Source: a phage
Length of the DNA: 48,243 bases
Direction: 5' to 3' (one strand)
Sequence record: PZ150741.1
Position numbers and translations under genes: made by a program. A model generated the notes under the pieces. The model was not told the origin of the DNA, searched no databases, and worked only from the letters and a program-made list of their open reading frames with translations. The stretch's first letter is position 1. Every line of letters starts with the position of its first letter. Positions 1 to 48,243 of the stretch are shown piece by piece.

Positions 1-35
1 GGAGATGCAACAATACAAACACCAATAAAATTTAC

Positions 36-64
36 TTGCACACTAAGATAGAATATGCTACTAT
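36..64 (+). promoter_or_regulatory. sigma70-like promoter (TTGCAC-17 bp-TACTAT)
   Basis: -35 TTGCAC at 36-41, 17-bp spacer, -10 TACTAT at 59-64; followed by conserved leader AACGAGAGGAGAGG and ATG at 95. Confidence 0.6.
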
Positions 65-94
65 TCATTTACACAAACGAGAGGAGAGGCAGAT

Positions 95-244
95 ATGGTT
101 ACTTTGATGGTTATGGAGTTCGAAAACAGCACCGCAACTTACCGCGAGATGACTATGGCGCAGGCGTATCACCTGGCCTCAAACGGCAACTTCTACAAGG
201 CCCAAATCATCAACGAGTTCGGGGTAATTGACTATGAATTTTAA
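95..244 (+). CDS. hypothetical small protein (49 aa)
   Basis: ATG at 95 preceded by GAGGAGAGG Shine-Dalgarno; stop overlaps next start (ATGA); below the 60-aa ORF-track cutoff. Confidence 0.45.
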   Translation: MVTLMVMEFENSTATYREMTMAQAYHLASNGNFYKAQIINEFGVIDYEF

Positions 245-506
245 CAGTTACACCGTTACCGTTGATTTTGAGGGGCTGGAGCTGCCCCTCCCTAACAACT
301 ACCGGTATATCTCACGCGACTGTAACGGGTTTATTCAGGGGTGGCGGAACAAACCGACAGATACTGAGTTCGGGATGTCTGGCGGGGAAGAGTTGCCGAT
401 CACTTTCGGACATCAGAGTAGCAACGAAGAACTTAAAACCGTGATTCGTAAGTATCGCCGCCGCGGTAACACCGGACTTATAGCAATAACAGGCGCGGTT
501 GAATAA
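234..506 (+). CDS. hypothetical protein (90 aa)
   Basis: Track ORF 228-506; first ATG at 234 with GGGG upstream. Confidence 0.5.
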   Translation: MNFNSYTVTVDFEGLELPLPNNYRYISRDCNGFIQGWRNKPTDTEFGMSGGEELPITFGHQSSNEELKTVIRKYRRRGNTGLIAITGAVE

Positions 507-525
507 ACGAGAGGAGAGACAGAAG

Positions 526-744
526 ATGTTCCTGGAATGCAAATCCTATGAAGGCTATTGGGCGCTGACCAAAAACGACCTGTACCACCTCAAAGAAGAC
601 GGCGACGAGAGCCGCTGCTACATAATAGACGACAATGGCACTGAACTTGATGTCTATTACACCGGGTATGGTCGATGGGCGTTATTGGCGGACGATGACT
701 TTGTGTTCGAAGAATATAACGGAGAGGAGCCAGAAGATGAGTAA
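526..744 (+). CDS. hypothetical protein (72 aa)
   Basis: Track ORF 499-744; ATG at 526 preceded by AACGAGAGGAGAGACAGAAG leader/SD. Confidence 0.5.
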   Translation: MFLECKSYEGYWALTKNDLYHLKEDGDESRCYIIDDNGTELDVYYTGYGRWALLADDDFVFEEYNGEEPEDE

Positions 745-1339
745 CAAAAACGAAGTATTAGAATACCTGATTGACCAGCTACGGCAGCAGCTACCGGTAG
801 TAGATGTAATGGGTGAAATAAAACGGTGGAGCATAGACCGTAGTATTGCTGGCCGAGGTAACTATACCGAAGAGGAAAACGCCGTAATCGATGCTTACAT
901 CGGCCTGGAGCACAACCCATACAAGCAACAGTGCGAAGACCTGGCACATGAGGTGCAGTCACTCAAGAATCAGTTACGCGACGCTTCGGCGCTGGTGGCT
1001 GAGTTACAGAGCGACAACATTAAGAAATCTGAGCACATATCGCACCTGTCGGAACTGGTGGACGAGTTGATGGGGACTATAACGTTAATGAACGGGGACG
1101 TTGAGGCTTACAAAGTTCTACGCAAAGGTGGGTACGTGCCTGAGCAATCCGGTTGCCGTAAGGACGATACCCAGGAATGCGAGCATGAGTGGCGATGTGT
1201 GGTAGTTTTTGGGAATAGACTTGGGACCCCGTATTGCCGTAAATGTGGTGCGGCTAAACCTGAAGAATGCAAGCACGAATGGCAATTTTACGGAGTCGGG
1301 TTTCCTTGTATGTGCCTTAAATGCGGGTTAAAGAAATGA
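738..1339 (+). CDS. hypothetical protein, coiled-coil N-terminus and tandem Cys-rich zinc-ribbon-like C-terminus
   Basis: Track ORF 635-1339; ATG at 738 after GGAGAGGAG SD; C-terminus has two repeats of ECxHEW...CxKCG. Confidence 0.5.
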
Positions 1340-1539
1340 CCAGCATCCTTTTTATCTGGGTACTGTCTGCAGGTCAGATGCATCTGGCGGCATCAGAAAC
1401 GTTTTACTCGATGGAGGCGTGCCGGTCAGCGGCACGCGCCGCAGAGAACGCACACTTCCTGTTTCAGGGCGACAAGCCCAACGATTCAGAGGTACGCGCT
1501 ATCTGCTCACCTAAGCGACTTGGTAAACAGGAGAAGTGA
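1336..1539 (+). CDS. hypothetical small protein with hydrophobic signal-peptide-like N-terminus
   Basis: Track ORF 1321-1539; ATG at 1336 overlaps upstream stop (ATGA); N-terminus MTSILFIWVLSAGQMHLAAS. Confidence 0.4.
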   Translation: MTSILFIWVLSAGQMHLAASETFYSMEACRSAARAAENAHFLFQGDKPNDSEVRAICSPKRLGKQEK

Positions 1540-1541
1540 TT

Positions 1542-1790
1542 ATGGTTAAATTATACGCAGAGCGCGATTTAGAAATGCTCGACATGACTAACAATTACTA
1601 TTCAAGACATGTGATGGCTATGACGGAGGAAGGATTGAACAGTAAATCATCTATCGCTGCTGAGTTGGCGTACCGTGACTGGATTATTGATGAACAGCAA
1701 AAAGAGTTACAGAAATACAAAGACCAGTTCCCGGATTACGTCGAGTGCGCGAACTGTGGGTTGGTCACACATGTGGAAGGGGTAGAGTGA
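1542..1790 (+). CDS. hypothetical protein (82 aa)
   Basis: Track ORF 1536-1790; ATG at 1542 after AGGAGAAG. Confidence 0.45.
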   Translation: MVKLYAERDLEMLDMTNNYYSRHVMAMTEEGLNSKSSIAAELAYRDWIIDEQQKELQKYKDQFPDYVECANCGLVTHVEGVE

Positions 1791-1792
1791 TT

Positions 1793-2011
1793 ATGATATT
1801 CAGAGACCGTAGCAGCTTAAGAACACCGGATTGTCCTACGTTCGAGTTCGAAGACAAAGACGGAGATGTATGCTGTATTCAATTTTATAGAGACGATGAA
1901 GGTGAGTGCGGGCTTGTAGAGTTGCAGGTTTACAGTGAAACCGGTTGTGTTGTATTAAGTGCAGATGATGCGGAATCACTAGCTCGTAAGATACTTGAGG
2001 GCGTTAAATGA
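1793..2011 (+). CDS. hypothetical protein (72 aa)
   Basis: Track ORF 1745-2011; ATG at 1793 after GAAGGGG, follows upstream stop. Confidence 0.45.
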   Translation: MIFRDRSSLRTPDCPTFEFEDKDGDVCCIQFYRDDEGECGLVELQVYSETGCVVLSADDAESLARKILEGVK

Positions 2012-2301
2012 GCCTCGCAACTGACATCCTGAAACGAAGCGGCCTTGCGCCGCTGTCACCGAGAGCGAACACCCAAATATACAAGCGCCGCCGTAATGCG
2101 CTGTACCCCGAGATTCAGGCCAGACGCAAAGCTATCCGCGCCTGTGGATTCCAGAACGGGAAGGCCGTGAATCTCGGTGAGTTTAAAACACAGGAACGCG
2201 CAGCAATCGCTAACCGGTTATTTAATTACTGGAAATCGCTGGGGTACGATGATATTCCGACGAAACCACAGAGACGACAATACATCTGGAGACACAAATA
2301 A
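2008..2301 (+). CDS. hypothetical basic protein (97 aa)
   Basis: Track ORF; start overlaps upstream stop; Arg/Lys-rich. Confidence 0.45.
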   Translation: MSLATDILKRSGLAPLSPRANTQIYKRRRNALYPEIQARRKAIRACGFQNGKAVNLGEFKTQERAAIANRLFNYWKSLGYDDIPTKPQRRQYIWRHK

Positions 2302-2376
2302 ACAACTATTAGGATAATTCCTACCCGTGGTATCCTCCAGTTACTGCATACTTAATACGCACCTGGAGGATTCATC

Positions 2377-2685
2377 TTGGATAAATTTACTGAAACAGTG
2401 ACAGGCTGGCTTCTAGCTGCCGCGCTCGCCGGAGGGGTAATCGGACTACGACAACATAAGTCCGTTATTTCTGGCCCCACCGACGGCTTCTGCTTTATTG
2501 CTACTGGCTTCACTTGCGCCGTATTTGGTGCACCTCTTGCCGCTCAATGGTTCGGAATCACGGGCGACCGTGAAATCGCCGGGTTGGGCTTCATTATCGC
2601 TGTTCTCTGGATGCCTATCTATTCCCGTCTATCCAGTATCGTAGCCGGGGAATACATCGCACGTCGAGGAGGCACAGATGAATGA
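2377..2685 (+). CDS. holin-like membrane protein (about 3 TM segments)
   Basis: TTG start after GGAGGA; three hydrophobic segments; directly upstream of second membrane protein and endolysin. Confidence 0.45.
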   Translation: MDKFTETVTGWLLAAALAGGVIGLRQHKSVISGPTDGFCFIATGFTCAVFGAPLAAQWFGITGDREIAGLGFIIAVLWMPIYSRLSSIVAGEYIARRGGTDE

Positions 2686-2950
2686 GTTATTCTGGTTCGG
2701 CGGTATGCTGGCAATCGGGGGCACATCGCTGTTTAATGTGTACCACCCCAGCGTGGACGATGGGTTATTTGGTAGGGTGCTCTATATCCTGACAGCTATC
2801 GTCTGCGCCGCCGGATGTATCCACTTGCTACAGGGCAGCATGTCCCCGACGCTGCCTGAGACGTTAATCACATTAGTTGCGCTGCGCCAGATTCGCCAGG
2901 CGTGGTTGTCATACGGAGGACATAAGCGTGTCTCGAAATATTTCAGATAA
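2678..2950 (+). CDS. holin/antiholin-like membrane protein (2 TM segments)
   Basis: Two hydrophobic helices; overlaps both neighbours in the lysis cassette. Confidence 0.45.
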   Translation: MNELFWFGGMLAIGGTSLFNVYHPSVDDGLFGRVLYILTAIVCAAGCIHLLQGSMSPTLPETLITLVALRQIRQAWLSYGGHKRVSKYFR

Positions 2951-3416
2951 TGGGTTGCATTTTACCGCTGCGTTCGAGGGATTCCGCGGAACTGCGTATC
3001 GTGCTACGCCGAACGAGAAGTACCTGACTATAGGCTATGGAAGCTACGGTCCGCATGTTAAGGCGGGGCAAACCATCACGCCTGGTCAGGGCTTACTATT
3101 ACTTAATCGCGATATGGCTAAAGCCGTAGTTGCGGTTGATGCGGCGGCGCACCACTCATTGACACAGGCGCAGTTCGATGCAGTGTGCGACCTGGTGTAT
3201 AACGCGGGTGCCGGAGTGATTGCGGCTACTACTGGCACAGGTAAGGCACTGCGTTCTGGCGATATTGCGACACTGCGGGCTAAGCTGGCGCTGTTCATCA
3301 ACCAGAACGGCAAACCGTTACTTGGCTTACGTCGTCGCGTAGCTGGTCGCCTGGCGCTGTTCGACGGTAAACCGTGGCAGGAGGCGGAGGCTATTGGACG
3401 TGCGGTGAAAGGTTGA
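2928..3416 (+). CDS. endolysin, GH24 lysozyme (T4/P22 lysozyme-like)
   Basis: GTG at 2928 after GGAGGA; motifs ISDNG, FEGF...YLTIGYG, QFDAVCDLVYNAG, RRRVAGRLALF resemble P22 gp19/T4 e lysozymes. Confidence 0.85.
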   Translation: MSRNISDNGLHFTAAFEGFRGTAYRATPNEKYLTIGYGSYGPHVKAGQTITPGQGLLLLNRDMAKAVVAVDAAAHHSLTQAQFDAVCDLVYNAGAGVIAATTGTGKALRSGDIATLRAKLALFINQNGKPLLGLRRRVAGRLALFDGKPWQEAEAIGRAVKG

Positions 3417-3480
3417 CACATAAGACTAATCCGACGATACTTAAATCACCTCCTGCTCCATCCCTCTGCTCTCCAGTTTT

Positions 3481-3512
3481 ATCCCGGCCCTGACCCAGCC
3501 GGGATTTTTTTT
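3481..3512 (+). terminator. rho-independent terminator after lysis cassette
   Basis: Hairpin ATCCCGGC-CCTGACCCA-GCCGGGAT followed by T8 run. Confidence 0.8.
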
Positions 3513-3534
3513 ATCTATTTTCTGTAATGAATAG

Positions 3535-3563
3535 TTGACTATTACTCTGACCCCAATTATATT
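3535..3563 (+). promoter_or_regulatory. sigma70-like promoter (TTGACT-17 bp-TATATT)
   Basis: Immediately downstream of terminator; followed by AACGAGAACGGAG leader and ATG at 3598. Confidence 0.55.
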
Positions 3564-3597
3564 TACTTCATCGACAACGAGAACGGAGTAGAGAGAA

Positions 3598-3846
3598 ATG
3601 GGCAACGTATCGACGATAGAAATAACCGAAGAACTCGAAGATAAATGCATCGCATGGACTATGGATAATGACCCGGTTGCTATGTGTAAATTTCCAATGA
3701 AAATCACAGATACCGAAGCATTCAAAGACGCACAACTGATGGCACGCATCGCCGTTAGTAACCTGAGCAATAGCATTCCAGCGGACGCGTTCTGGTTCGC
3801 CGCAATGCAGACACTGAAAGCAGCTTATGCAGGAGAGAAGAAATGA
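3598..3846 (+). CDS. hypothetical protein (82 aa)
   Basis: Track ORF; strong SD GGAGTAGAGAGAA. Confidence 0.5.
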   Translation: MGNVSTIEITEELEDKCIAWTMDNDPVAMCKFPMKITDTEAFKDAQLMARIAVSNLSNSIPADAFWFAAMQTLKAAYAGEKK

Positions 3847-4046
3847 ACAACGTCACCGTTGGCGGCATTTATAAGAGTCGTCACTCTTGGAATGAGGGTG
3901 CAAGATTCATTGTAACCGCGGTTGGGTTGGACCACGTGCTTATCGCGGACCACCCATTGATAAAATTCAATGAATCCTATTTGGAATATTGTGTTGGTAG
4001 AAAGGAGTTCGAGACTAAATTTAAGTTTGCAGGAGAGAAGAAATGA
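3843..4046 (+). CDS. hypothetical protein (67 aa)
   Basis: Track ORF; ATGA overlap; SD AGGAGAGAAG. Confidence 0.5.
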   Translation: MNNVTVGGIYKSRHSWNEGARFIVTAVGLDHVLIADHPLIKFNESYLEYCVGRKEFETKFKFAGEKK

Positions 4047-4201
4047 GTGAACAAGGTCAAGTAAGCCAGCCACTACGAGTAGGCCGTAAAGTCAGTCGCA
4101 CCCCGTTCCCGACACGCGAGGAACTGATGAAACGTAACAGTTTCCCGGGGCCGGACAAGAACAAGTATCTCAATCGTATGTGGGGAGAGCGTAAAGAATG
4201 A
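4043..4201 (+). CDS. hypothetical small protein (52 aa)
   Basis: ATG at 4043 after AGGAGAGAAG; ATGA overlap with next gene; below track cutoff. Confidence 0.4.
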   Translation: MSEQGQVSQPLRVGRKVSRTPFPTREELMKRNSFPGPDKNKYLNRMWGERKE

Positions 4202-4368
4202 AAAAGTTAATTGCAGATGTTGAACTCGGTGATGTTATTCGTATTGATGACGACTACGGCGGCTACGACGTAGTGGTGAAGCACATCGAGTGGGATTCTA
4301 CGTTGCCATTTGTCACGATTAACCGTGAAATAATGTTCACTAAAACTGATTGGGTAGAGGTTCGATAA
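4198..4368 (+). CDS. hypothetical small protein (56 aa)
   Basis: ATG at 4198 after GGGGAGAG; below track cutoff. Confidence 0.4.
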   Translation: MKKLIADVELGDVIRIDDDYGGYDVVVKHIEWDSTLPFVTINREIMFTKTDWVEVR

Positions 4369-4541
4369 TGACTAACAACGAATACGAGAAACTTAGCGTA
4401 GAAGCGGCGACCGGTGAATCTGAAATAGCGTGGATTGACGCCAACATCGAGCACTACCTACGGCAAGTAGACATCCTTATGGAACGCCGCCGTGAACTGA
4501 TTAACCGCTTCAACCTGAACAAAGGTGACGCCAATGCCTAA
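4368..4541 (+). CDS. hypothetical protein (57 aa)
   Basis: Track ORF 4350-4541; ATG at 4368 overlaps upstream TAA. Confidence 0.45.
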   Translation: MTNNEYEKLSVEAATGESEIAWIDANIEHYLRQVDILMERRRELINRFNLNKGDANA

Positions 4542-4719
4542 AATCACAATTGCATCACTAGAGCGCCGTATTCTGGTGCTCGAGTCAGAGAAACAGACGT
4601 TAGGCGGTCAACTGTCGATTAACGGCGAGTTTCAACTGGAGGCGTTTAAGATGCTACTTGAACGCATGAAGGACGAGGAAGATTGGGCGCATTCCTTGCA
4701 AGACCTCTGGCAATACTAA
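4534..4719 (+). CDS. hypothetical coiled-coil protein (61 aa)
   Basis: Track ORF 4525-4719; ATG at 4534 after AAAGGTGA. Confidence 0.45.
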   Translation: MPKITIASLERRILVLESEKQTLGGQLSINGEFQLEAFKMLLERMKDEEDWAHSLQDLWQY

Positions 4720-11211: not shown

Positions 11212-11601
11212 ATGGATCTTAAAGCAACTGTCGTAGCAGGAGCATGTTTCATCATCCTGGCTTACGCACACGGCATCTATCAATACCGAAGCGGCTGGAA
11301 CGAAGGCCGGGCGAATCTCGTTTCGCAGCAACAGCAGGAAGCACAAGCTGAGTTAGCGAAGAAAACACAACGGCAGCAGCAGGACGAATCAAAGGCCGCA
11401 GCCGCTGACAACGAAGGCAAGACGAAATCAGAGGTGATTACCCGTGAAGTCGTTAAGTACATTAAAACGCCTGGCCGCAGCGTGTGCACTTTCGATGATG
11501 CTCGTGTCCTGCTCAAGTCCCGCGCCGTCGCAAACGCCAATTCCATCCCCGGATATGACGATGATGCAGCCACCGTGCAAACTGGCGCCGCCAAGCAGTG
11601 A
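11212..11601 (+). CDS. i-spanin (Rz-like)
   Basis: N-terminal TM segment, Gln/Ala/Lys-rich coiled-coil region, and an embedded out-of-frame lipoprotein ORF. Confidence 0.6.
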   Translation: MDLKATVVAGACFIILAYAHGIYQYRSGWNEGRANLVSQQQQEAQAELAKKTQRQQQDESKAAAADNEGKTKSEVITREVVKYIKTPGRSVCTFDDARVLLKSRAVANANSIPGYDDDAATVQTGAAKQ

Positions 11602-11707
11602 TGCTGACGAGGATTTAGCTATCGATGTTCAGAATGCCGAATGTGCACGGCAACTGCGTCTGAAGGTGTTCATGTTGCAGGATTATGTGAGGAATATTCT
11701 GGAATAG
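11444..11707 (+). CDS. o-spanin (Rz1-like outer-membrane lipoprotein)
   Basis: GTG start after GAGGTGA; signal peptide ending in lipobox LVSC; Pro-rich mature region; overlaps i-spanin in a different frame. Confidence 0.6.
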   Translation: MKSLSTLKRLAAACALSMMLVSCSSPAPSQTPIPSPDMTMMQPPCKLAPPSSDADEDLAIDVQNAECARQLRLKVFMLQDYVRNILE

Positions 11708-11789: not shown

Positions 11790-12491
11790 ATGAATCGTTT
11801 TTTACGTTATCCGTTCCAGGAAGAAGCTGGAGCAGAAGATAAAGCTGGCGGCGGTGACGCACCGAAAATGTTCACAGCCGAAGAAGTTCAGGCGCTGATT
11901 GAGAAAGAAGTTGCCGGGCTTAAGGCCAATCAGGAAGCTTTGCTGGCGGAGAAGAAAGAAGCCGCTCGTAGAGCAAAAGAGGCTGAAGAAGAACGGCAGC
12001 GCGCGCACCAGGAGGCGTTAAAAGCCGCTGGTAAGATGGACGAGTTCGAAAAGACGATTCGTAGCCAGTATGACCCGGTGTTAGCCGAGAAAGATGGTCG
12101 CATCTCCAGAATGGCAGAGCGCATCCTCGGCAGCGAACGTAAAGCGGTGTTAGGCTCTTTCGCAGGGGACTTTATTACCCCGGAAGCAGTAGACATTCTG
12201 GCTCCGTTCGTTAAGACTGAGTTCGAAGGCGATGATGTGGTTACTAAGTTTGTCGGCGCAGACGGTAACGTAATCACGACTGACCCGGAACAGTTCCGCA
12301 AATACCTGCGCGAACACAAAGCGTTTTCGCATTTGATTAAAGCAAATGCAGCTTCCGGCGGCGGGGCTTCCGGTAGCAAAGGCGGCGGGGCCGCACCAGC
12401 GTTTAAAGACATGAGTGAAGCGGAGCGTTTAGCTCTGTACAAATCGAACCCTGCCGAATTTGAACGGCAACTTAAAGCCCTGAGGAAATAA
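11790..12491 (+). CDS. capsid scaffolding protein
   Basis: Track ORF 11736-12491, likely start ATG 11790; highly charged coiled-coil sequence; immediately upstream of major capsid gene. Confidence 0.6.
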   Translation: MNRFLRYPFQEEAGAEDKAGGGDAPKMFTAEEVQALIEKEVAGLKANQEALLAEKKEAARRAKEAEEERQRAHQEALKAAGKMDEFEKTIRSQYDPVLAEKDGRISRMAERILGSERKAVLGSFAGDFITPEAVDILAPFVKTEFEGDDVVTKFVGADGNVITTDPEQFRKYLREHKAFSHLIKANAASGGGASGSKGGGAAPAFKDMSEAERLALYKSNPAEFERQLKALRK

Positions 12492-12493
12492 TA

Positions 12494-13543
12494 ATGGCAA
12501 TTACCACTATCGGCGATATCGTAACTGGCAACATTCCGGTTCTGGCGTCTTACATGACAGAAGACCCGGTAGAAAAAACCGCGTTCTTCCAGTCCGGTAT
12601 TCTGACCCCGACTCCGTACGCTGCTGAGATTGCCCGCGGCCCGTCCAACATCGCTAATATTCCTTTCTGGAAAGCGATTGACACTTCCATCGAGCCTAAC
12701 TACTCGAACGACGTATACCAGGACATCGCCACCCCGCGTAATGTCCAGACCGGCGAGATGATGGCCCGCGTTGCGTACCTGAACGAAGGTTTCGGCCAGG
12801 CGGATTTGACCGTTGAACTGACCAGCCAGAACCCGCTGCAATCCGTAGCGTCCCGTCTGGATAACTTCTGGCAGCGCCAGGCGCAACGCCGTCTGATTGC
12901 TACCGCGCTTGGCCTGTACAACGACAACGTGGCCGCTACCGACGCATACCACGAGCAGAACGACATGGTAATTGACGTGTCCGCTACTCTGGGCTTCGAC
13001 TCCGGCGCGTTCATCGATGCTACCCAGACTATGGGTGACGCTCTGATTGGCAACGGCGGCGAAGTGCTGGGTGCTATTGCTATGCACAGCTTTGTGTATG
13101 CGCAGGCACGTAAGCAGCAGCTTATTGACTTCATCCGTGACGCGGACAACAACACCATGTTCGCCACCTACCAGGGGTACCGCGTGATTGTTGACGACAG
13201 CATGACCGTAGTCGGTACTGGCCCGAGTCGTAAGTTCATTTCCATCATCTTCGGCAACGGCGCTATCGGTTATGGTGAAGGTAATCCGGTTAAACCGCTG
13301 CATTACGAGTACGAAGCGTCCCGCGGCAACGGCGGCGGCGTTGAAACCCTGTGGACCCGTAAGACCTGGCTGCTGCATCCGTTTGGCTACAGCTTCACCA
13401 GCGCAGTAATCACCGGTAACGGTACTGAGACTACCCCGCGCTCTGCTTCCTGGCAGGACCTGGCGAACGCCTCCAACTGGAACCGCGTTGTTGAGCGTAA
13501 GCATGTACCGATTGCCTTCCTGGTAACTGGTGTCGGTGCTTAA
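12494..13543 (+). CDS. major capsid protein
   Basis: 349-aa ORF immediately after scaffold gene, followed by strong terminator; size and position typical of HK97-fold capsid proteins. Confidence 0.75.
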   Translation: MAITTIGDIVTGNIPVLASYMTEDPVEKTAFFQSGILTPTPYAAEIARGPSNIANIPFWKAIDTSIEPNYSNDVYQDIATPRNVQTGEMMARVAYLNEGFGQADLTVELTSQNPLQSVASRLDNFWQRQAQRRLIATALGLYNDNVAATDAYHEQNDMVIDVSATLGFDSGAFIDATQTMGDALIGNGGEVLGAIAMHSFVYAQARKQQLIDFIRDADNNTMFATYQGYRVIVDDSMTVVGTGPSRKFISIIFGNGAIGYGEGNPVKPLHYEYEASRGNGGGVETLWTRKTWLLHPFGYSFTSAVITGNGTETTPRSASWQDLANASNWNRVVERKHVPIAFLVTGVGA

Positions 13544-13558
13544 GGTTAAGCTATAATC

Positions 13559-13586
13559 GAGAGGGACTTCGGTCCCTCTTTTCATT
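13559..13586 (+). terminator. hairpin GAGGGAC-TTCG-GTCCCTC plus T-run
   Basis: After major capsid gene; likely partial terminator for transcript abundance. Confidence 0.7.
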
Positions 13587-29872: not shown

Positions 29873-31293
29873 TTCTTACCTCGTCTCTTCATGTAATTAA
29901 GCAACTCTTCCTGTACCGATTTCTTCTCGTCTGTACGCGCGGCGACAACCTCGTCCAGCGTGTCTTTAGCCACGATGTGGTAGAGAAACACCGGGCGCTC
30001 GTGGCCCGCCTGTTTCTGGCGAACGGGGCCGATGCGCTCAACGACCTGCAAATAGTGCTCAAGGTTCCAGCCTTGCGAGATAAACGCCAGATGATGGCCG
30101 CCGTCCTGTAAATTCAAACCATGACCGGCTGACGCAGGGTGAACGCACAAAATCTCGATTTCACCACGGTTCCACGCTTCCATCTGCTTATTACCCTTAG
30201 CGCCTTTGGCAAACGCCTGCGCCTGTGGGAATCGCTTAAGGATGCGCTCAAGTTCGTGCTTGAACTGATAGGCCACCAGTAACGGTGCACCCTGTAGCTC
30301 CTCAACAATCGACTCCAGCGCATCCAGTTTCGTGTCGTGAACTTTCTCCCAGTCTTTGGTCGCTTCTCCGTCTGGCCCTGACACATACACGGCACCGGAC
30401 GCAATCTGCAGGCACTTCGACGTCTTCGCCGCAGCGTTAGCCGCTTCGACTTCCCCGCTCTCCAGTTCCGCGAATAACTTCTCCTCCATATCGATGTACG
30501 CCTGACGCGCTTTCTTCGGCAGGTCGATTTCAACCGGCACAATAATCGGCGCTTCGCAACCGAACCACTCTGCGGCGTCAATCGTAAGACTAATGTCCTT
30601 CATCTTCTGGTGAATTTCATTATCTGCGCCTGGGCGTGCATGATATTCACGCGCCATAGCTGACTTACCTTTCTGGACAGAGTTAAACCAGCGGTCGGTG
30701 AATGCCGTATATGAAGAACCGAGGCGCTCGCCTGCGTCAATAAACCAGTTCTGACCCCACAGGTCTTTGAGGCCGTTTGGTGATGGTGTGCCTGTCAGGT
30801 TAATGAACCGCTTAACCTTTCCGAACGCCACTTTGCTGAGCGCCTTAGCCCGCTTGCTACCCCCTGAACGGCTACGGAATGATTTTAGCTTCGTACTCTC
30901 GTCGGCGACGATAACCGTAAAAGGCCAGTCGTCTTTGCCGTAGTAGTCAATCAGCCACTCGATAACTTCGTAGTTAGTGCACACCACGTTAGCGTCTGAC
31001 TCCAGCGCCGCAATACGGCGTTTCTCCGAACCCGTTGCATCGACGACACGCAGGCACGGGAAACCCCACTTAGTTTGTTCTGCAGGCCACGTACCGGACG
31101 CAACACGTAACGGGGCGAGGATTAACACGCGGTCCTCTTCCGTAAGCTGACCGTTGCGGAACAGGCGGTTTAATGTCCACAGTACGCTGCCAGTCTTCCC
31201 GGCACCCATGCTCGCCCATATGTTGCAGCGATGGTGTTGCAACATGAACGAAGTCATGAGCTTCTGATATTCGCGCCTTTGAAACTTACCCAT
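29869..31293 (-). CDS. SNF2/DEAD-like superfamily 2 helicase
   Basis: Walker A MGAGKTGS, DExx box VADEST, C-terminal HPASAGHGLNLQ helicase motif VI-like. Confidence 0.8.
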   Translation of the reverse strand: MGKFQRREYQKLMTSFMLQHHRCNIWASMGAGKTGSVLWTLNRLFRNGQLTEEDRVLILAPLRVASGTWPAEQTKWGFPCLRVVDATGSEKRRIAALESDANVVCTNYEVIEWLIDYYGKDDWPFTVIVADESTKLKSFRSRSGGSKRAKALSKVAFGKVKRFINLTGTPSPNGLKDLWGQNWFIDAGERLGSSYTAFTDRWFNSVQKGKSAMAREYHARPGADNEIHQKMKDISLTIDAAEWFGCEAPIIVPVEIDLPKKARQAYIDMEEKLFAELESGEVEAANAAAKTSKCLQIASGAVYVSGPDGEATKDWEKVHDTKLDALESIVEELQGAPLLVAYQFKHELERILKRFPQAQAFAKGAKGNKQMEAWNRGEIEILCVHPASAGHGLNLQDGGHHLAFISQGWNLEHYLQVVERIGPVRQKQAGHERPVFLYHIVAKDTLDEVVAARTDEKKSVQEELLNYMKRRGKK

Positions 31294-32203
31294 TTACCAC
31301 CCCCATGAACGCCTTTATAAATTCAGCGGCTACTTGCGGGACGATGGCATTGCCGTAACCGCGCAATCGTCCCACTCTGGCGGGTATCCCATTAGCCAGC
31401 GGGAATGTGCCGGGTTCAACTGGCCGGAATTTCCCATCCCGGCAGCCGAGCCAGTCAGCATCTGACCAGAAGCCGTGATACGAATTGGTTGCGTTATCGC
31501 CGCCGCTTGTGCCACGTCTTGAGGTCCACCCTTCCTCTGAATCTCTGATAGCGCCCCCTCTAGTGTTCTCACGTTCTTTTCCCCGTCCGCACTGCGAGGA
31601 GTAGGCCAATTCGCTTTCCACACTTCCCGCCCCAACAGGCTGTTGGTAGGCACATTCAGGCATTCCTTCCCGTCTTTGTGGTCGCGCGTTGTTGGCGTCG
31701 GCCAATTCGTGCGCACCAAAGAAGAGTCGTTCTCTTTTGTGCGGAGCGCCGACGCTACAAGCTGGGAGTACGGCAAACCCGACGGCGTAGTCTTCTCCTT
31801 CCAGGTGAGCTTGTAAATCGCACATCCACGATTTTGCAATTGCTGGTGCAACCTGTTCCCCAAAGAGGACTGGAGGGCGGCACTCGCTGATGAGGTCGAG
31901 GAAAACTGGCGCGAGGTGTCTCGGGTCGAACTGCCCGAGTTGTTTTCCCGCCGCGCTAAACGGTTGGCAAGGCGGGCTTCCCGTCCAGAGAGGCGTATCT
32001 TCCGAAACTCCCGCAAGTCTGAGCGCGAGAGGCCAGCCGCCGATACCAGCGAAAAAATGACACTGGGTGAATCCGTCAAGGTCTTCTGGTCTAATTTCGG
32101 TAATGCTTCTTTCATCTACAACTCCAAAAGGTATATGACCCTGTTTTATTAGTTCGCGCAGCCACGCGGCTGCGCCTTTATCCCATTCGTTGTAATAGTT
32201 CAT
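31286..32203 (-). CDS. DNA (cytosine-5)-methyltransferase, compact
   Basis: Motif I FFAGIGGW, motif IV PPCQPFSAAG, ENV-like FGEQV, motif X YGNAIVPQVA. Confidence 0.75.
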   Translation of the reverse strand: MNYYNEWDKGAAAWLRELIKQGHIPFGVVDERSITEIRPEDLDGFTQCHFFAGIGGWPLALRLAGVSEDTPLWTGSPPCQPFSAAGKQLGQFDPRHLAPVFLDLISECRPPVLFGEQVAPAIAKSWMCDLQAHLEGEDYAVGFAVLPACSVGAPHKRERLFFGAHELADANNARPQRREGMPECAYQQPVGAGSVESELAYSSQCGRGKERENTRGGAIRDSEEGWTSRRGTSGGDNATNSYHGFWSDADWLGCRDGKFRPVEPGTFPLANGIPARVGRLRGYGNAIVPQVAAEFIKAFMGVVNG

Positions 32204-43266: not shown

Positions 43267-43464
43267 ATGAGTGAATGGATTAAGTGCAGTGAGCGGATGC
43301 CAGGTGATTTTGAAGATGTTCTGGTTACTGATGGGGTCTATGTAGAAGTTATGTGGTTAGATTGTGATGGGTATTGGGATAGTCGGGTAGAGTCGTGGGC
43401 GGTTACGGTGGACCGGGAAGATATAACACACTGGATGCCGTTACCAGAGCCGCCGGAAGTGTGA
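43267..43464 (+). CDS. hypothetical protein, DUF551-like (tentative)
   Basis: Track ORF; C-terminal WMPLPEPP resembles small phage DUF551 proteins. Confidence 0.45.
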   Translation: MSEWIKCSERMPGDFEDVLVTDGVYVEVMWLDCDGYWDSRVESWAVTVDREDITHWMPLPEPPEV

Positions 43465-43495
43465 TGTTCAATAGTTTGGGATTTTACTGAGTGAC

Positions 43496-43530
43496 TTACG
43501 CTGCTACACAGCAGCGTATCATTTTTCTCA
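43496..43530 (+). terminator. rho-independent terminator ACGCTGC-TACACA-GCAGCGT plus T-runs
   Basis: 7-bp stem followed by ATCATTTTTCTCATTTTT; immediately upstream of repeat/promoter. Confidence 0.7.
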
Positions 43531-43611
43531 TTTTTGTTCTATTTCACGAAACGCAACAATTGAAGCTACTATTGCAGGAGATGCAACAATACAAACACCA
43601 ATAAAATTTAC

Positions 43612-43640
43612 TTGCACACTAAGATAGAATATGCTACTAT
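43612..43640 (+). promoter_or_regulatory. sigma70-like promoter, copy of 36-64
   Basis: Duplicate within repeat. Confidence 0.6.
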
Positions 43641-43670
43641 TCATTTACACAAACGAGAGGAGAGGCAGAT

Positions 43671-43820
43671 ATGGTTACTTTGATGGTTATGGAGTTCGAA
43701 AACAGCACCGCAACTTACCGCGAGATGACTATGGCGCAGGCGTATCACCTGGCCTCAAACGGCAACTTCTACAAGGCCCAAATCATCAACGAGTTCGGGG
43801 TAATTGACTATGAATTTTAA
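43671..43820 (+). CDS. hypothetical small protein (copy of 95-244)
   Basis: Duplicate within repeat. Confidence 0.45.
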   Translation: MVTLMVMEFENSTATYREMTMAQAYHLASNGNFYKAQIINEFGVIDYEF

Positions 43821-44082
43821 CAGTTACACCGTTACCGTTGATTTTGAGGGGCTGGAGCTGCCCCTCCCTAACAACTACCGGTATATCTCACGCGACTGTA
43901 ACGGGTTTATTCAGGGGTGGCGGAACAAACCGACAGATACTGAGTTCGGGATGTCTGGCGGGGAAGAGTTGCCGATCACTTTCGGACATCAGAGTAGCAA
44001 CGAAGAACTTAAAACCGTGATTCGTAAGTATCGCCGCCGCGGTAACACCGGACTTATAGCAATAACAGGCGCGGTTGAATAA
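43810..44082 (+). CDS. hypothetical protein (copy of 234-506)
   Basis: Duplicate within repeat. Confidence 0.5.
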   Translation: MNFNSYTVTVDFEGLELPLPNNYRYISRDCNGFIQGWRNKPTDTEFGMSGGEELPITFGHQSSNEELKTVIRKYRRRGNTGLIAITGAVE

Positions 44083-44101
44083 ACGAGAGGAGAGACAGAA
44101 G

Positions 44102-44320
44102 ATGTTCCTGGAATGCAAATCCTATGAAGGCTATTGGGCGCTGACCAAAAACGACCTGTACCACCTCAAAGAAGACGGCGACGAGAGCCGCTGCTACATA
44201 ATAGACGACAATGGCACTGAACTTGATGTCTATTACACCGGGTATGGTCGATGGGCGTTATTGGCGGACGATGACTTTGTGTTCGAAGAATATAACGGAG
44301 AGGAGCCAGAAGATGAGTAA
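44102..44320 (+). CDS. hypothetical protein (copy of 526-744)
   Basis: Duplicate within repeat. Confidence 0.5.
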   Translation: MFLECKSYEGYWALTKNDLYHLKEDGDESRCYIIDDNGTELDVYYTGYGRWALLADDDFVFEEYNGEEPEDE

Positions 44321-44915
44321 CAAAAACGAAGTATTAGAATACCTGATTGACCAGCTACGGCAGCAGCTACCGGTAGTAGATGTAATGGGTGAAATAAAAC
44401 GGTGGAGCATAGACCGTAGTATTGCTGGCCGAGGTAACTATACCGAAGAGGAAAACGCCGTAATCGATGCTTACATCGGCCTGGAGCACAACCCATACAA
44501 GCAACAGTGCGAAGACCTGGCACATGAGGTGCAGTCACTCAAGAATCAGTTACGCGACGCTTCGGCGCTGGTGGCTGAGTTACAGAGCGACAACATTAAG
44601 AAATCTGAGCACATATCGCACCTGTCGGAACTGGTGGACGAGTTGATGGGGACTATAACGTTAATGAACGGGGACGTTGAGGCTTACAAAGTTCTACGCA
44701 AAGGTGGGTACGTGCCTGAGCAATCCGGTTGCCGTAAGGACGATACCCAGGAATGCGAGCATGAGTGGCGATGTGTGGTAGTTTTTGGGAATAGACTTGG
44801 GACCCCGTATTGCCGTAAATGTGGTGCGGCTAAACCTGAAGAATGCAAGCACGAATGGCAATTTTACGGAGTCGGGTTTCCTTGTATGTGCCTTAAATGC
44901 GGGTTAAAGAAATGA
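44314..44915 (+). CDS. zinc-ribbon-like protein (copy of 738-1339)
   Basis: Duplicate within repeat. Confidence 0.5.
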
Positions 44916-45115
44916 CCAGCATCCTTTTTATCTGGGTACTGTCTGCAGGTCAGATGCATCTGGCGGCATCAGAAACGTTTTACTCGATGGAGGCGTGCCG
45001 GTCAGCGGCACGCGCCGCAGAGAACGCACACTTCCTGTTTCAGGGCGACAAGCCCAACGATTCAGAGGTACGCGCTATCTGCTCACCTAAGCGACTTGGT
45101 AAACAGGAGAAGTGA
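44912..45115 (+). CDS. hypothetical small protein (copy of 1336-1539)
   Basis: Duplicate within repeat. Confidence 0.4.
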   Translation: MTSILFIWVLSAGQMHLAASETFYSMEACRSAARAAENAHFLFQGDKPNDSEVRAICSPKRLGKQEK

Positions 45116-45117
45116 TT

Positions 45118-45366
45118 ATGGTTAAATTATACGCAGAGCGCGATTTAGAAATGCTCGACATGACTAACAATTACTATTCAAGACATGTGATGGCTATGAC
45201 GGAGGAAGGATTGAACAGTAAATCATCTATCGCTGCTGAGTTGGCGTACCGTGACTGGATTATTGATGAACAGCAAAAAGAGTTACAGAAATACAAAGAC
45301 CAGTTCCCGGATTACGTCGAGTGCGCGAACTGTGGGTTGGTCACACATGTGGAAGGGGTAGAGTGA
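45118..45366 (+). CDS. hypothetical protein (copy of 1542-1790)
   Basis: Duplicate within repeat. Confidence 0.45.
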   Translation: MVKLYAERDLEMLDMTNNYYSRHVMAMTEEGLNSKSSIAAELAYRDWIIDEQQKELQKYKDQFPDYVECANCGLVTHVEGVE

Positions 45367-45368
45367 TT

Positions 45369-45587
45369 ATGATATTCAGAGACCGTAGCAGCTTAAGAAC
45401 ACCGGATTGTCCTACGTTCGAGTTCGAAGACAAAGACGGAGATGTATGCTGTATTCAATTTTATAGAGACGATGAAGGTGAGTGCGGGCTTGTAGAGTTG
45501 CAGGTTTACAGTGAAACCGGTTGTGTTGTATTAAGTGCAGATGATGCGGAATCACTAGCTCGTAAGATACTTGAGGGCGTTAAATGA
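45369..45587 (+). CDS. hypothetical protein (copy of 1793-2011)
   Basis: Duplicate within repeat. Confidence 0.45.
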   Translation: MIFRDRSSLRTPDCPTFEFEDKDGDVCCIQFYRDDEGECGLVELQVYSETGCVVLSADDAESLARKILEGVK

Positions 45588-45877
45588 GCCTCGCAACTGA
45601 CATCCTGAAACGAAGCGGCCTTGCGCCGCTGTCACCGAGAGCGAACACCCAAATATACAAGCGCCGCCGTAATGCGCTGTACCCCGAGATTCAGGCCAGA
45701 CGCAAAGCTATCCGCGCCTGTGGATTCCAGAACGGGAAGGCCGTGAATCTCGGTGAGTTTAAAACACAGGAACGCGCAGCAATCGCTAACCGGTTATTTA
45801 ATTACTGGAAATCGCTGGGGTACGATGATATTCCGACGAAACCACAGAGACGACAATACATCTGGAGACACAAATAA
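45584..45877 (+). CDS. hypothetical basic protein (copy of 2008-2301)
   Basis: Duplicate within repeat. Confidence 0.45.
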   Translation: MSLATDILKRSGLAPLSPRANTQIYKRRRNALYPEIQARRKAIRACGFQNGKAVNLGEFKTQERAAIANRLFNYWKSLGYDDIPTKPQRRQYIWRHK

Positions 45878-45952
45878 ACAACTATTAGGATAATTCCTAC
45901 CCGTGGTATCCTCCAGTTACTGCATACTTAATACGCACCTGGAGGATTCATC

Positions 45953-46261
45953 TTGGATAAATTTACTGAAACAGTGACAGGCTGGCTTCTAGCTGCCGCG
46001 CTCGCCGGAGGGGTAATCGGACTACGACAACATAAGTCCGTTATTTCTGGCCCCACCGACGGCTTCTGCTTTATTGCTACTGGCTTCACTTGCGCCGTAT
46101 TTGGTGCACCTCTTGCCGCTCAATGGTTCGGAATCACGGGCGACCGTGAAATCGCCGGGTTGGGCTTCATTATCGCTGTTCTCTGGATGCCTATCTATTC
46201 CCGTCTATCCAGTATCGTAGCCGGGGAATACATCGCACGTCGAGGAGGCACAGATGAATGA
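45953..46261 (+). CDS. holin-like membrane protein (copy of 2377-2685)
   Basis: Duplicate within repeat. Confidence 0.45.
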   Translation: MDKFTETVTGWLLAAALAGGVIGLRQHKSVISGPTDGFCFIATGFTCAVFGAPLAAQWFGITGDREIAGLGFIIAVLWMPIYSRLSSIVAGEYIARRGGTDE

Positions 46262-46526
46262 GTTATTCTGGTTCGGCGGTATGCTGGCAATCGGGGGCAC
46301 ATCGCTGTTTAATGTGTACCACCCCAGCGTGGACGATGGGTTATTTGGTAGGGTGCTCTATATCCTGACAGCTATCGTCTGCGCCGCCGGATGTATCCAC
46401 TTGCTACAGGGCAGCATGTCCCCGACGCTGCCTGAGACGTTAATCACATTAGTTGCGCTGCGCCAGATTCGCCAGGCGTGGTTGTCATACGGAGGACATA
46501 AGCGTGTCTCGAAATATTTCAGATAA
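46254..46526 (+). CDS. holin/antiholin-like membrane protein (copy of 2678-2950)
   Basis: Duplicate within repeat. Confidence 0.45.
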   Translation: MNELFWFGGMLAIGGTSLFNVYHPSVDDGLFGRVLYILTAIVCAAGCIHLLQGSMSPTLPETLITLVALRQIRQAWLSYGGHKRVSKYFR

Positions 46527-46990
46527 TGGGTTGCATTTTACCGCTGCGTTCGAGGGATTCCGGAACTGCGTATCGTGCTACGCCGAACGAGAAGTACCTG
46601 ACTATAGGCTATGGAAGCTACGGTCCGCATGTTAAGGCGGGGCAAACCATCACGCCTGGTCAGGGCTTACTATTACTTAATCGCGATATGGCTAAAGCCG
46701 TAGTTGCGGTTGATGCGGCGGCGCACCACTCATTGACACAGGCGCAGTTCGATGCAGTGTGCGACCTGGTGTATAACGCGGGTGCCGGAGTGATTGCGGC
46801 TACTACTGGCACAGGTAAGGCACTGCGTTCTGGCGATATTGCGACACTGCGGGCTAAGCTGGCGCTGTTCATCAACCAGAACGGCAAACCGTTACTTGGC
46901 TTACGTCGTCGCGTAGCTGGTCGCCTGGCGCTGTTCGACGGTAAACCGTGGCAGGAGGCGGAGGCTATTGGACGTGCGGTGAAAGGTTGA
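46504..46990 (+). pseudogene. endolysin copy disrupted by 2-bp deletion (frameshift)
   Basis: Relative to 2928-3416, CGCG becomes CG at 46561; reading frame breaks after FEGFR; track splits it into 46453-46635 and 46526-46990. Confidence 0.8.
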
Positions 46991-47054
46991 CACATAAGAC
47001 TAATCCGACGATACTTAAATCACCTCCTGCTCCATCCCTCTGCTCTCCAGTTTT

Positions 47055-47085
47055 ATCCCGGCCCTGACCCAGCCGGGATTTTTTT
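47055..47085 (+). terminator. terminator copy with T7 instead of T8
   Basis: Same hairpin as 3481-3512, one T shorter. Confidence 0.8.
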
Positions 47086-47107
47086 ATCTATTTTCTGTAA
47101 TGAATAG

Positions 47108-47136
47108 TTGACTATTACTCTGACCCCAATTATATT
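47108..47136 (+). promoter_or_regulatory. sigma70-like promoter, copy of 3535-3563
   Basis: Duplicate within repeat. Confidence 0.55.
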
Positions 47137-47170
47137 TACTTCATCGACAACGAGAACGGAGTAGAGAGAA

Positions 47171-47419
47171 ATGGGCAACGTATCGACGATAGAAATAACC
47201 GAAGAACTCGAAGATAAATGCATCGCATGGACTATGGATAATGACCCGGTTGCTATGTGTAAATTTCCAATGAAAATCACAGATACCGAAGCATTCAAAG
47301 ACGCACAACTGATGGCACGCATCGCCGTTAGTAACCTGAGCAATAGCATTCCAGCGGACGCGTTCTGGTTCGCCGCAATGCAGACACTGAAAGCAGCTTA
47401 TGCAGGAGAGAAGAAATGA
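47171..47419 (+). CDS. hypothetical protein (copy of 3598-3846)
   Basis: Duplicate within repeat. Confidence 0.5.
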   Translation: MGNVSTIEITEELEDKCIAWTMDNDPVAMCKFPMKITDTEAFKDAQLMARIAVSNLSNSIPADAFWFAAMQTLKAAYAGEKK

Positions 47420-47619
47420 ACAACGTCACCGTTGGCGGCATTTATAAGAGTCGTCACTCTTGGAATGAGGGTGCAAGATTCATTGTAACCGCGGTTGGGT
47501 TGGACCACGTGCTTATCGCGGACCACCCATTGATAAAATTCAATGAATCCTATTTGGAATATTGTGTTGGTAGAAAGGAGTTCGAGACTAAATTTAAGTT
47601 TGCAGGAGAGAAGAAATGA
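47416..47619 (+). CDS. hypothetical protein (copy of 3843-4046)
   Basis: Duplicate within repeat. Confidence 0.5.
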   Translation: MNNVTVGGIYKSRHSWNEGARFIVTAVGLDHVLIADHPLIKFNESYLEYCVGRKEFETKFKFAGEKK

Positions 47620-47774
47620 GTGAACAAGGTCAAGTAAGCCAGCCACTACGAGTAGGCCGTAAAGTCAGTCGCACCCCGTTCCCGACACGCGAGGAACTGA
47701 TGAAACGTAACAGTTTCCCGGGGCCGGACAAGAACAAGTATCTCAATCGTATGTGGGGAGAGCGTAAAGAATGA
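47616..47774 (+). CDS. hypothetical small protein (copy of 4043-4201)
   Basis: Duplicate within repeat. Confidence 0.4.
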   Translation: MSEQGQVSQPLRVGRKVSRTPFPTREELMKRNSFPGPDKNKYLNRMWGERKE

Positions 47775-47941
47775 AAAAGTTAATTGCAGATGTTGAACTC
47801 GGTGATGTTATTCGTATTGATGACGACTACGGCGGCTACGACGTAGTGGTGAAGCACATCGAGTGGGATTCTACGTTGCCATTTGTCACGATTAACCGTG
47901 AAATAATGTTCACTAAAACTGATTGGGTAGAGGTTCGATAA
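47771..47941 (+). CDS. hypothetical small protein (copy of 4198-4368)
   Basis: Duplicate within repeat. Confidence 0.4.
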   Translation: MKKLIADVELGDVIRIDDDYGGYDVVVKHIEWDSTLPFVTINREIMFTKTDWVEVR

Positions 47942-48114
47942 TGACTAACAACGAATACGAGAAACTTAGCGTAGAAGCGGCGACCGGTGAATCTGAAATA
48001 GCGTGGATTGACGCCAACATCGAGCACTACCTACGGCAAGTAGACATCCTTATGGAACGCCGCCGTGAACTGATTAACCGCTTCAACCTGAACAAAGGTG
48101 ACGCCAATGCCTAA
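47941..48114 (+). CDS. hypothetical protein (copy of 4368-4541)
   Basis: Duplicate within repeat. Confidence 0.45.
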   Translation: MTNNEYEKLSVEAATGESEIAWIDANIEHYLRQVDILMERRRELINRFNLNKGDANA

Positions 48115-48243
48115 AATCACAATTGCATCACTAGAGCGCCGTATTCTGGTGCTCGAGTCAGAGAAACAGACGTTAGGCGGTCAACTGTCGATTAACGGCG
48201 AGTTTCAACTGGAGGCGTTTAAGATGCTACTTGAACGCATGAA
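48107..48243 (+). CDS. hypothetical protein, 3'-truncated by window end (copy of 4534-4719)
   Basis: Duplicate within repeat; ORF runs off the window. Confidence 0.4.
   Translation, partial: MPKITIASLERRILVLESEKQTLGGQLSINGEFQLEAFKMLLERM

Follow-up and report, generated by a model that had tools for sequence, protein, structure and literature searches.

The E. coli phage PBEC131 encodes the endolysin EC340. This PF00959 protein of 162 aa proved muralytic in a zymogram (PMC8886149). Its engineered form, mtEC340M, has a crystal structure (PDB 8hp8). In Kagunavirus phages such as GertrudWoker_Bas73 (Bas73 from here on), NTEC3 and K1G, the lysis genes form a holin-holin-endolysin cassette. The genomes of these phages are about 41–44 kb long (PMC11990801).

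The packaging of several relatives has been described. Shashou is reported to use pac packaging (PMC6776780), and the Jerseyvirus SeF1 headful packaging (PMC9409062). For the Kagunavirus fBC-Eco01 no termini could be identified (PMC9825357). Assemblies of circularly permuted genomes show identical contig ends, of which the right-hand copy is removed before annotation (PMC9409062).

Here we analyse a window of 48,243 bp, by which we mean the whole stretch of DNA under study. The gene order of its lysis cassette is that of Bas73, NTEC3 and K1G, the proteins are 93–99% identical, and the hairpin and T-tract downstream of the endolysin are conserved. Kagunavirus records carry the lysis locus once, whereas the window writes it twice, through a 4.67-kb overlap of its two ends. 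The endolysin is intact in the left copy and broken in the right copy. The most probable explanation, in our view, is that the differences in the right copy are a consensus or assembly artefact in an untrimmed overlap, and that the left gene is the real endolysin; the technical cause is one that we infer.

Nucleotide similarity and synteny place the phage in the genus Kagunavirus (Guernseyvirinae). Over the 1.1-kb lysis region its DNA is 88–90% identical to many members of the genus. The same level of identity holds across 81–87% of a 24.3-kb query in comparisons with fEg-Eco19, K1G and K1ind1-3. The gene order is collinear with that of Bas73, whose record is circular, 43,856 bp long and without a repeat. 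A scan of genome_contigs for a near-identical phage found nothing; the closest relatives at the DNA level reach no more than about 90% identity.

The window begins and ends with a direct repeat, to which no strand is assigned. The left copy (1–4670) contains small genes and the holin-holin-endolysin cassette. The right copy (43577–48243) reaches the last base of the contig. In blastn the two copies (4670 and 4667 nt) are 99.94% identical, with 0 mismatches and 2 gap openings. A MAFFT alignment of the two ends gives the same two gaps, and both are deletions in the right copy. The repeat starts exactly at base 1 and ends exactly at the last base. According to tblastn, its right boundary at 4670 (the equivalent of the contig end, 48243) falls inside a conserved small gene, a homologue of Bas73_0077 aligned at 4534–4707. 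Its left boundary at 43577 falls inside another, a homologue of Bas73_0061 aligned at 43464–43589.

Without one copy of the repeat the window has a unit length of 43,573 bp, which fits the 40.8–45.8 kb of the listed relatives. If the window were one headful, then 48.2 kb would be packaged for a 43.6-kb genome, a redundancy of about 10.7%. Overlapping ends of this sort are well known from assemblies of circularly permuted genomes. An untrimmed circular overlap, or one headful, accounts for the 4,670-bp repeat more plausibly than a fixed terminal repeat does.

In headful packaging as well as in packaging with direct terminal repeats, both terminal copies stand for one locus of the replicating genome. 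Because relatives are reported to package by headful, the unit length fits and the boundaries lie within conserved genes, we treat the left and right copies as a single locus. It follows from what is known about packaging that a difference between the two consensus sequences is not a heritable trait of a left as opposed to a right gene.

The first of the two gaps lies in the endolysin gene. In the MAFFT placement the left copy has a CG at 2985–2986 that the right copy lacks after 46560. Around this site the left copy reads GGGATTCCGCGGAACTG, with CGCG at 2985–2988, and the right copy reads GGGATTCCGGAACTG, two bases fewer. On the left the CGCG sits in the 10-nt palindrome TTCCGCGGAA (2982–2991, no strand), which is also a CCGCGG (SacII-type) site and occurs once in the whole window. 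On the right, alignment places the contracted palindrome TTCCGGAA, one CG shorter, at 46558–46565 (no strand). The left codons at the site are TTC GAG GGA TTC CGC GGA, which encode FEGFRG. An earlier note on this DNA had described the right copy as lacking one CG of a CGCG run just past FEGFR, and direct reading and MAFFT agree on this.

The second gap was not in the earlier note. It changes a run of eight T on the left (T8, 3505–3512) to seven on the right (T7, 47079–47085), in the T-tract of a terminator-like hairpin 3' of the endolysin. No other homopolymer in the entire 48-kb window reaches the length of this T8. Each of the two indels shortens a tandem repeat by one unit, from (CG)2 to CG and from T8 to T7. 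On the right copy they lie 520 bp apart and 1.2–1.7 kb from the contig end. The final 1,165 nt of the right copy show zero differences from the left copy.

The left copy carries a complete cassette on the plus strand. A 102-aa holin gene (2377–2685; phrog_2359 holin, E = 4.3e-29), whose product is 93% identical to the Bas73 holin, is followed by a second, 90-aa holin gene (2678–2950; phrog_2508 holin, E = 3.8e-34). The third gene is the endolysin (2928–3416), a GH24 phage lysozyme with a GTG start and a catalytic Glu17, as identified with PF00959, 8hp8 and an alignment to T4 lysozyme. Direct reading bears out the earlier description of this gene as one continuous frame of 162 codons, from GTG 2928 to the stop at 3416. 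A GGAGG Shine-Dalgarno sequence (2915–2919) lies 8 nt 5' of the GTG. At the end of the second holin gene the stop codon shares bases with an ATG in another reading frame, forming TAATG at 2948–2952 on the left and 46524–46528 on the right. On the left this start opens just a 25-codon ORF within the endolysin gene.

Downstream of the endolysin, folding recovers a hairpin with an 8-bp stem and a 9-nt loop, followed by the T8 (3481–3512, plus strand; −13.8 kcal/mol, z = −2.8). A consensus terminator scan had missed it, as the loop limit of the scan is 8 nt. The counterpart in the right copy, found by alignment and folding, ends in T7 (47055–47085, plus strand). A minus-strand ORF at 3441–3776 was treated as spurious. 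Its length changes with the T-tract, from 111 aa at T8 to 98 aa at T7 in the right copy. It matches no PHROG, and in Bas73 the interval between the endolysin and the next gene contains no annotated gene.

Against PF00959 (Phage_lysozyme) the left endolysin scores 89.7 bits, with a cut-off of 22.3, and covers profile positions 2–121 of 125. It also matches endolysin PHROGs. Compared to mtEC340M (8hp8) it is collinear over its full length from residue 1 (E = 2.8e-97). The alignment with 8hp8 begins VSRNIS...FTAAFEGFRGTAYRATPNEKYLTIGYG; the 8hp8 chain has 161 aa and the left endolysin 162 aa. Identity to EC340/8hp8 is about 93%, and the roughly 7% of differing residues are in part engineered substitutions of mtEC340M. 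EC340 does not have the 2-bp deletion found in the right copy of the window.

T4 lysozyme, the GH24 prototype, is 25% identical to the left endolysin. In a BLASTP alignment E17 pairs with the catalytic E11 of T4 lysozyme and T34 with T26, and the left endolysin has an insertion of two residues before the TIGYG motif. The second acidic residue of the E-8-D/C-5-T motif, D20 in T4 lysozyme, is replaced by Ala26, and the spacing to the Thr is 7 instead of 5. An Ala at this position is common to all listed homologues (...YRAT..., n=120). By analogy with EC340, a close homologue that is nevertheless active in a zymogram, we read Ala26 as a trait of the subfamily and not as a defect. The true gene is most likely the left copy, a soluble GH24 muramidase endolysin that starts at GTG 2928 and whose activity is predicted from the ~93% identical EC340. 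As such it is a typical EC340-type GH24 endolysin, of the kind carried by Kagunavirus and Jerseyvirus phages.

The right copy of the gene spans 46504–46990. These 487 nt are not divisible by 3. As the earlier note had reported, translation yields two ORFs instead of one, a 43-aa stub and a 154-aa ORF, both on the plus strand. The first 20 residues of the stub (46504–46635) are native and include the Glu; another 23, out of frame, follow before the stop (VSRNISDNGLHFTAAFEGFRNCVSCYAEREVPDYRLWKLRSAC*). It has no Pfam match. The 154-aa ORF (46526–46990) starts at ATG 46526 with MGCILPLRSRDSGTAYRAT..., that is with 11 foreign residues, and continues with endolysin residues 21/22–162. It appears on the right because the 2-bp deletion joins the TAATG start to the lysozyme frame. 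Where E17 stands in the left copy, this ORF carries MGCILPLRSRDS. It scores 79.6 bits against PF00959, over profile positions 10–121 only, while the left copy starts at 2. In the left copy the catalytic Glu is on the same chain as the domain; in the right copy it is not. Read literally, the right allele would be null, with E17 separated from the rest of the domain.

To place the two copies we turned to homologues and public contigs. The homologue search returned 808 endolysins at E ≤ 1e-20, and the site was inspected in the best 120 of these 808, which are 157–168 aa long. Among these listed matches, 120/120 are collinear in a single frame (...NG[LI]xF..A[FW]E[GQD]FRGTAY...), and E17 is invariant. 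The peptides specific to the right copy, GCILP and RSRDSG, occur in none of the 120. Public contigs were searched with identical flanks and a pattern that permitted 0–2 bases at the site. This gave nine contig matches (five from IMG/VR and four metagenomic, one of them shared, so that eight are independent), all with the 31-nt CGCG form. The 29-nt form, with the CG deleted, was found in 0/9 of these matches. The CGCG frame is kept in phage Bas73 too.

The hairpin and its T-tract are conserved in 10/10 related loci, with T8 in eight and T9 in two. None of these ten loci has a T7 tract. Relative to the relatives examined, both states of the right copy thus appear as unique, derived contractions by one unit. 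The exact endolysin products, the left one with an M or V start as well as the right ones, are absent from a collection of 15 billion proteins.

The earlier note had favoured a sequencing or assembly indel in the right copy. We come to the same view, since the CGCG frame is found in all homologues examined and in 8hp8, and since both contractions lie on the right and are absent from relatives. That the right copy is the erroneous one is also indicated by the loss of the catalytic Glu from its product and by the fact that a Kagunavirus packaging by headful has one such locus.

We propose the following explanation. The window would represent a single Kagunavirus genome, 43,573 bp per unit, whose two ends overlap by 4,670 bp. 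The overlap may be the untrimmed circular or concatemer overlap of a long-read-type assembly, or it may reflect a single headful of a chromosome that is circularly permuted and terminally redundant. In both cases the consensus of the same single-copy locus would have been called twice, independently, once as the left copy and once as the right. The missing CG and the T7 would be deletion errors of consensus calling at short tandem repeats. At a duplicated contig end, reads would be split between two identical targets, and polishing would presumably be weakest there. A described overlap of this kind, the one in PMC9409062, is 77 bp long and comes from SPAdes k-mers, whereas that of the window is 4,670 bp long and contains two indels. 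The length and the indels point to long reads or to molecules of virion length.

How accurate the contig is elsewhere bears on this explanation. We searched the window with the 81 annotated Bas73 proteins by tblastn. Across the entire window, the right-copy endolysin alone is divided between two frames (1 and 2). Single-frame alignments cover about 31.5 kb of the 38.9-kb unique region. A generally indel-prone assembly was rejected, as no other split gene occurs in these ~31.5 kb. By this measure the contig as a whole is accurate, and indels are detectable only in its duplicated right end.

This accuracy also counts against an artefact: the rest of the right copy is flawless and the interior is free of frameshifts, so the sequence is not generally error-ridden. 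Furthermore, sequencing errors more typically miscount homopolymers than drop 2 bp from a dinucleotide repeat. Polymerase slippage in vivo would give exactly these two changes. The enrichment of indels at the right end is suggestive, with two events only.

The strongest competitor of an artefact is a real minority haplotype. A 2-bp deletion caused by slippage would knock out the endolysin, linked to the T7 520 bp downstream, and the haplotype would be kept in the population by complementation during co-infection. We consider this unlikely. It could have entered the contig by two routes, which share that low probability between them. Either the assembler circled the genome and took the haplotype on its second pass, or the contig consists of virion-length molecules that are heterozygous in their terminal redundancy. 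Both differences are on one copy, 520 bp apart, as they would be on a linked haplotype, and replication slippage makes both kinds of change. With a contig that is accurate elsewhere and has no other split genes, two errors within 520 bp are also somewhat unexpected. The pattern is in fact equally expected from a minority haplotype picked up on the second pass of the assembler, and two events do not separate these readings.

Other observations speak against such a haplotype. The product that bears the domain is without the catalytic Glu, and a phage with this allele should be unable to lyse on its own and should stay rare. Neither state of the right copy occurs in any relative examined. Moreover, the clustering of errors at a duplicated contig end has a simple technical cause. 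The more specific claim that both ends are faithful to real DNA, with the endolysin-null haplotype (CCGCGG to CCGG, T8 to T7) carried by a sizeable sub-population or by individual heterozygote virions, is slightly more doubtful still. If the ends were faithful, then 48.2 kb would be the true headful size.

Alternatively, the 4.67-kb repeat might be a true, fixed direct terminal repeat of the T5 or T7 type, with a right endolysin that has decayed to a pseudogene. The contig does begin and end with the repeat, as this reading would have it. However, in phages with fixed direct terminal repeats (T7, T3, T5) the terminal copies are regenerated from one copy of the concatemer at each packaging, so a difference between them is not inheritable. 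The 0 substitutions in 4.67 kb speak against independent divergence of the two copies as well. The relatives, at 40.8–45.8 kb, are without such a repeat and are reported to be pac or headful phages or to have no termini, and the boundaries of the repeat cut conserved genes. Judged by these termini and boundaries, the repeat is most likely not a fixed one of the T7/T5 type, and we regard a decayed second gene as very improbable.

It is less probable again that the left copy is the wrong one, with a spurious CG insertion, and that the CG form is the true reading of the endolysin. In favour of this possibility one can cite the symmetry of the argument alone, and the start of the 154-aa ORF, which overlaps the holin stop (TAATG) and resembles a coupled start. 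But the CGCG frame is shared by 120/120 listed homologues, eight independent contigs, Bas73 and the crystal structure 8hp8. The CG form, on the other hand, is without the catalytic Glu, and its GCILP and RSRDSG peptides are in no listed homologue.

Finally, expression of the right copy by programmed +1 or −2 frameshifting, or a phase-variable lysis switch made of the CG and T tracts, has a negligible probability: we found no support for recoding or phase variation, a slippery motif is absent at TTC CGG AAC, RNA folding around the site is no stronger than in shuffled controls (z = +0.8 and +1.0), the listed homologues (120/120) and the window's own left copy use a single frame, the CG tract, with only two units, falls short of a contingency locus and does not vary among the eight independent related contigs, and the T8 tract is intergenic.

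Returning to the artefact as the preferred reading, the "broken" second endolysin is most likely one and the same gene, which appears twice because the contig ends overlap, and nothing new. It matters mainly as quality control. The contig is to be trimmed to 43,573 bp, and the endolysin is to be annotated from the left copy. From an untrimmed contig, annotation pipelines would list the lysis gene as pseudogenised or duplicated and overstate the genome size. Should the variant prove to be real, the lytic phage stock would be carrying a lysis-defective cheater allele, a minor case that is relevant to phage-therapy preparations and conceptually not new.

Several other features of the genome are apparent in the same window. 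GATC is strongly depleted, with 5 sites observed (398, 11215, 16947, 28151 and 43974) and 161 ± 12 expected from dinucleotide-preserving shuffles. The unit genome has four. The motif is also scarce in relatives: Bas73 has eight GATC in 43.9 kb, and partial loci have 0–4. This scarcity suggests that the whole family avoids a host system that targets GATC.

A homologue of a DNA methyltransferase lies at 31286–32203 on the minus strand. It is 305 aa long, compared to 264 aa in Bas73, and 73% identical to the Bas73 protein over a gapped alignment of 304 columns, while its neighbours are 97–99% identical. Judged by this comparison, the gene looks locally divergent or mosaic.

Opposite the scaffold and major capsid genes, on the minus strand, lies a 551-aa ORF (11930–13585). 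TTA, CTA and TCA, the antisense stops in the codon-aligned frame, are not used as codons in the capsid gene, and the longest antisense ORF in the same region of Bas73 has 303 aa. We rejected the ORF as a gene, and take it for a by-product of codon bias.

The gene after the tape measure (22895–23395, plus strand) encodes 166 aa, compared to 466 aa in Bas73 (17504–18904), and residues 1–162 alone align. Bas73 seems to carry an extension or insertion of 300 aa there that is absent from the phage of the window.

Homologues of the Rz-like spanins annotated in Bas73 form an overlapping pair on the plus strand (11212–11601 and 11564–11707), 92% and 96% identical to their counterparts. Their neighbours are head-morphogenesis genes; the holin-holin-endolysin cassette is about 8 kb away, and the terminal repeat does not include the pair.
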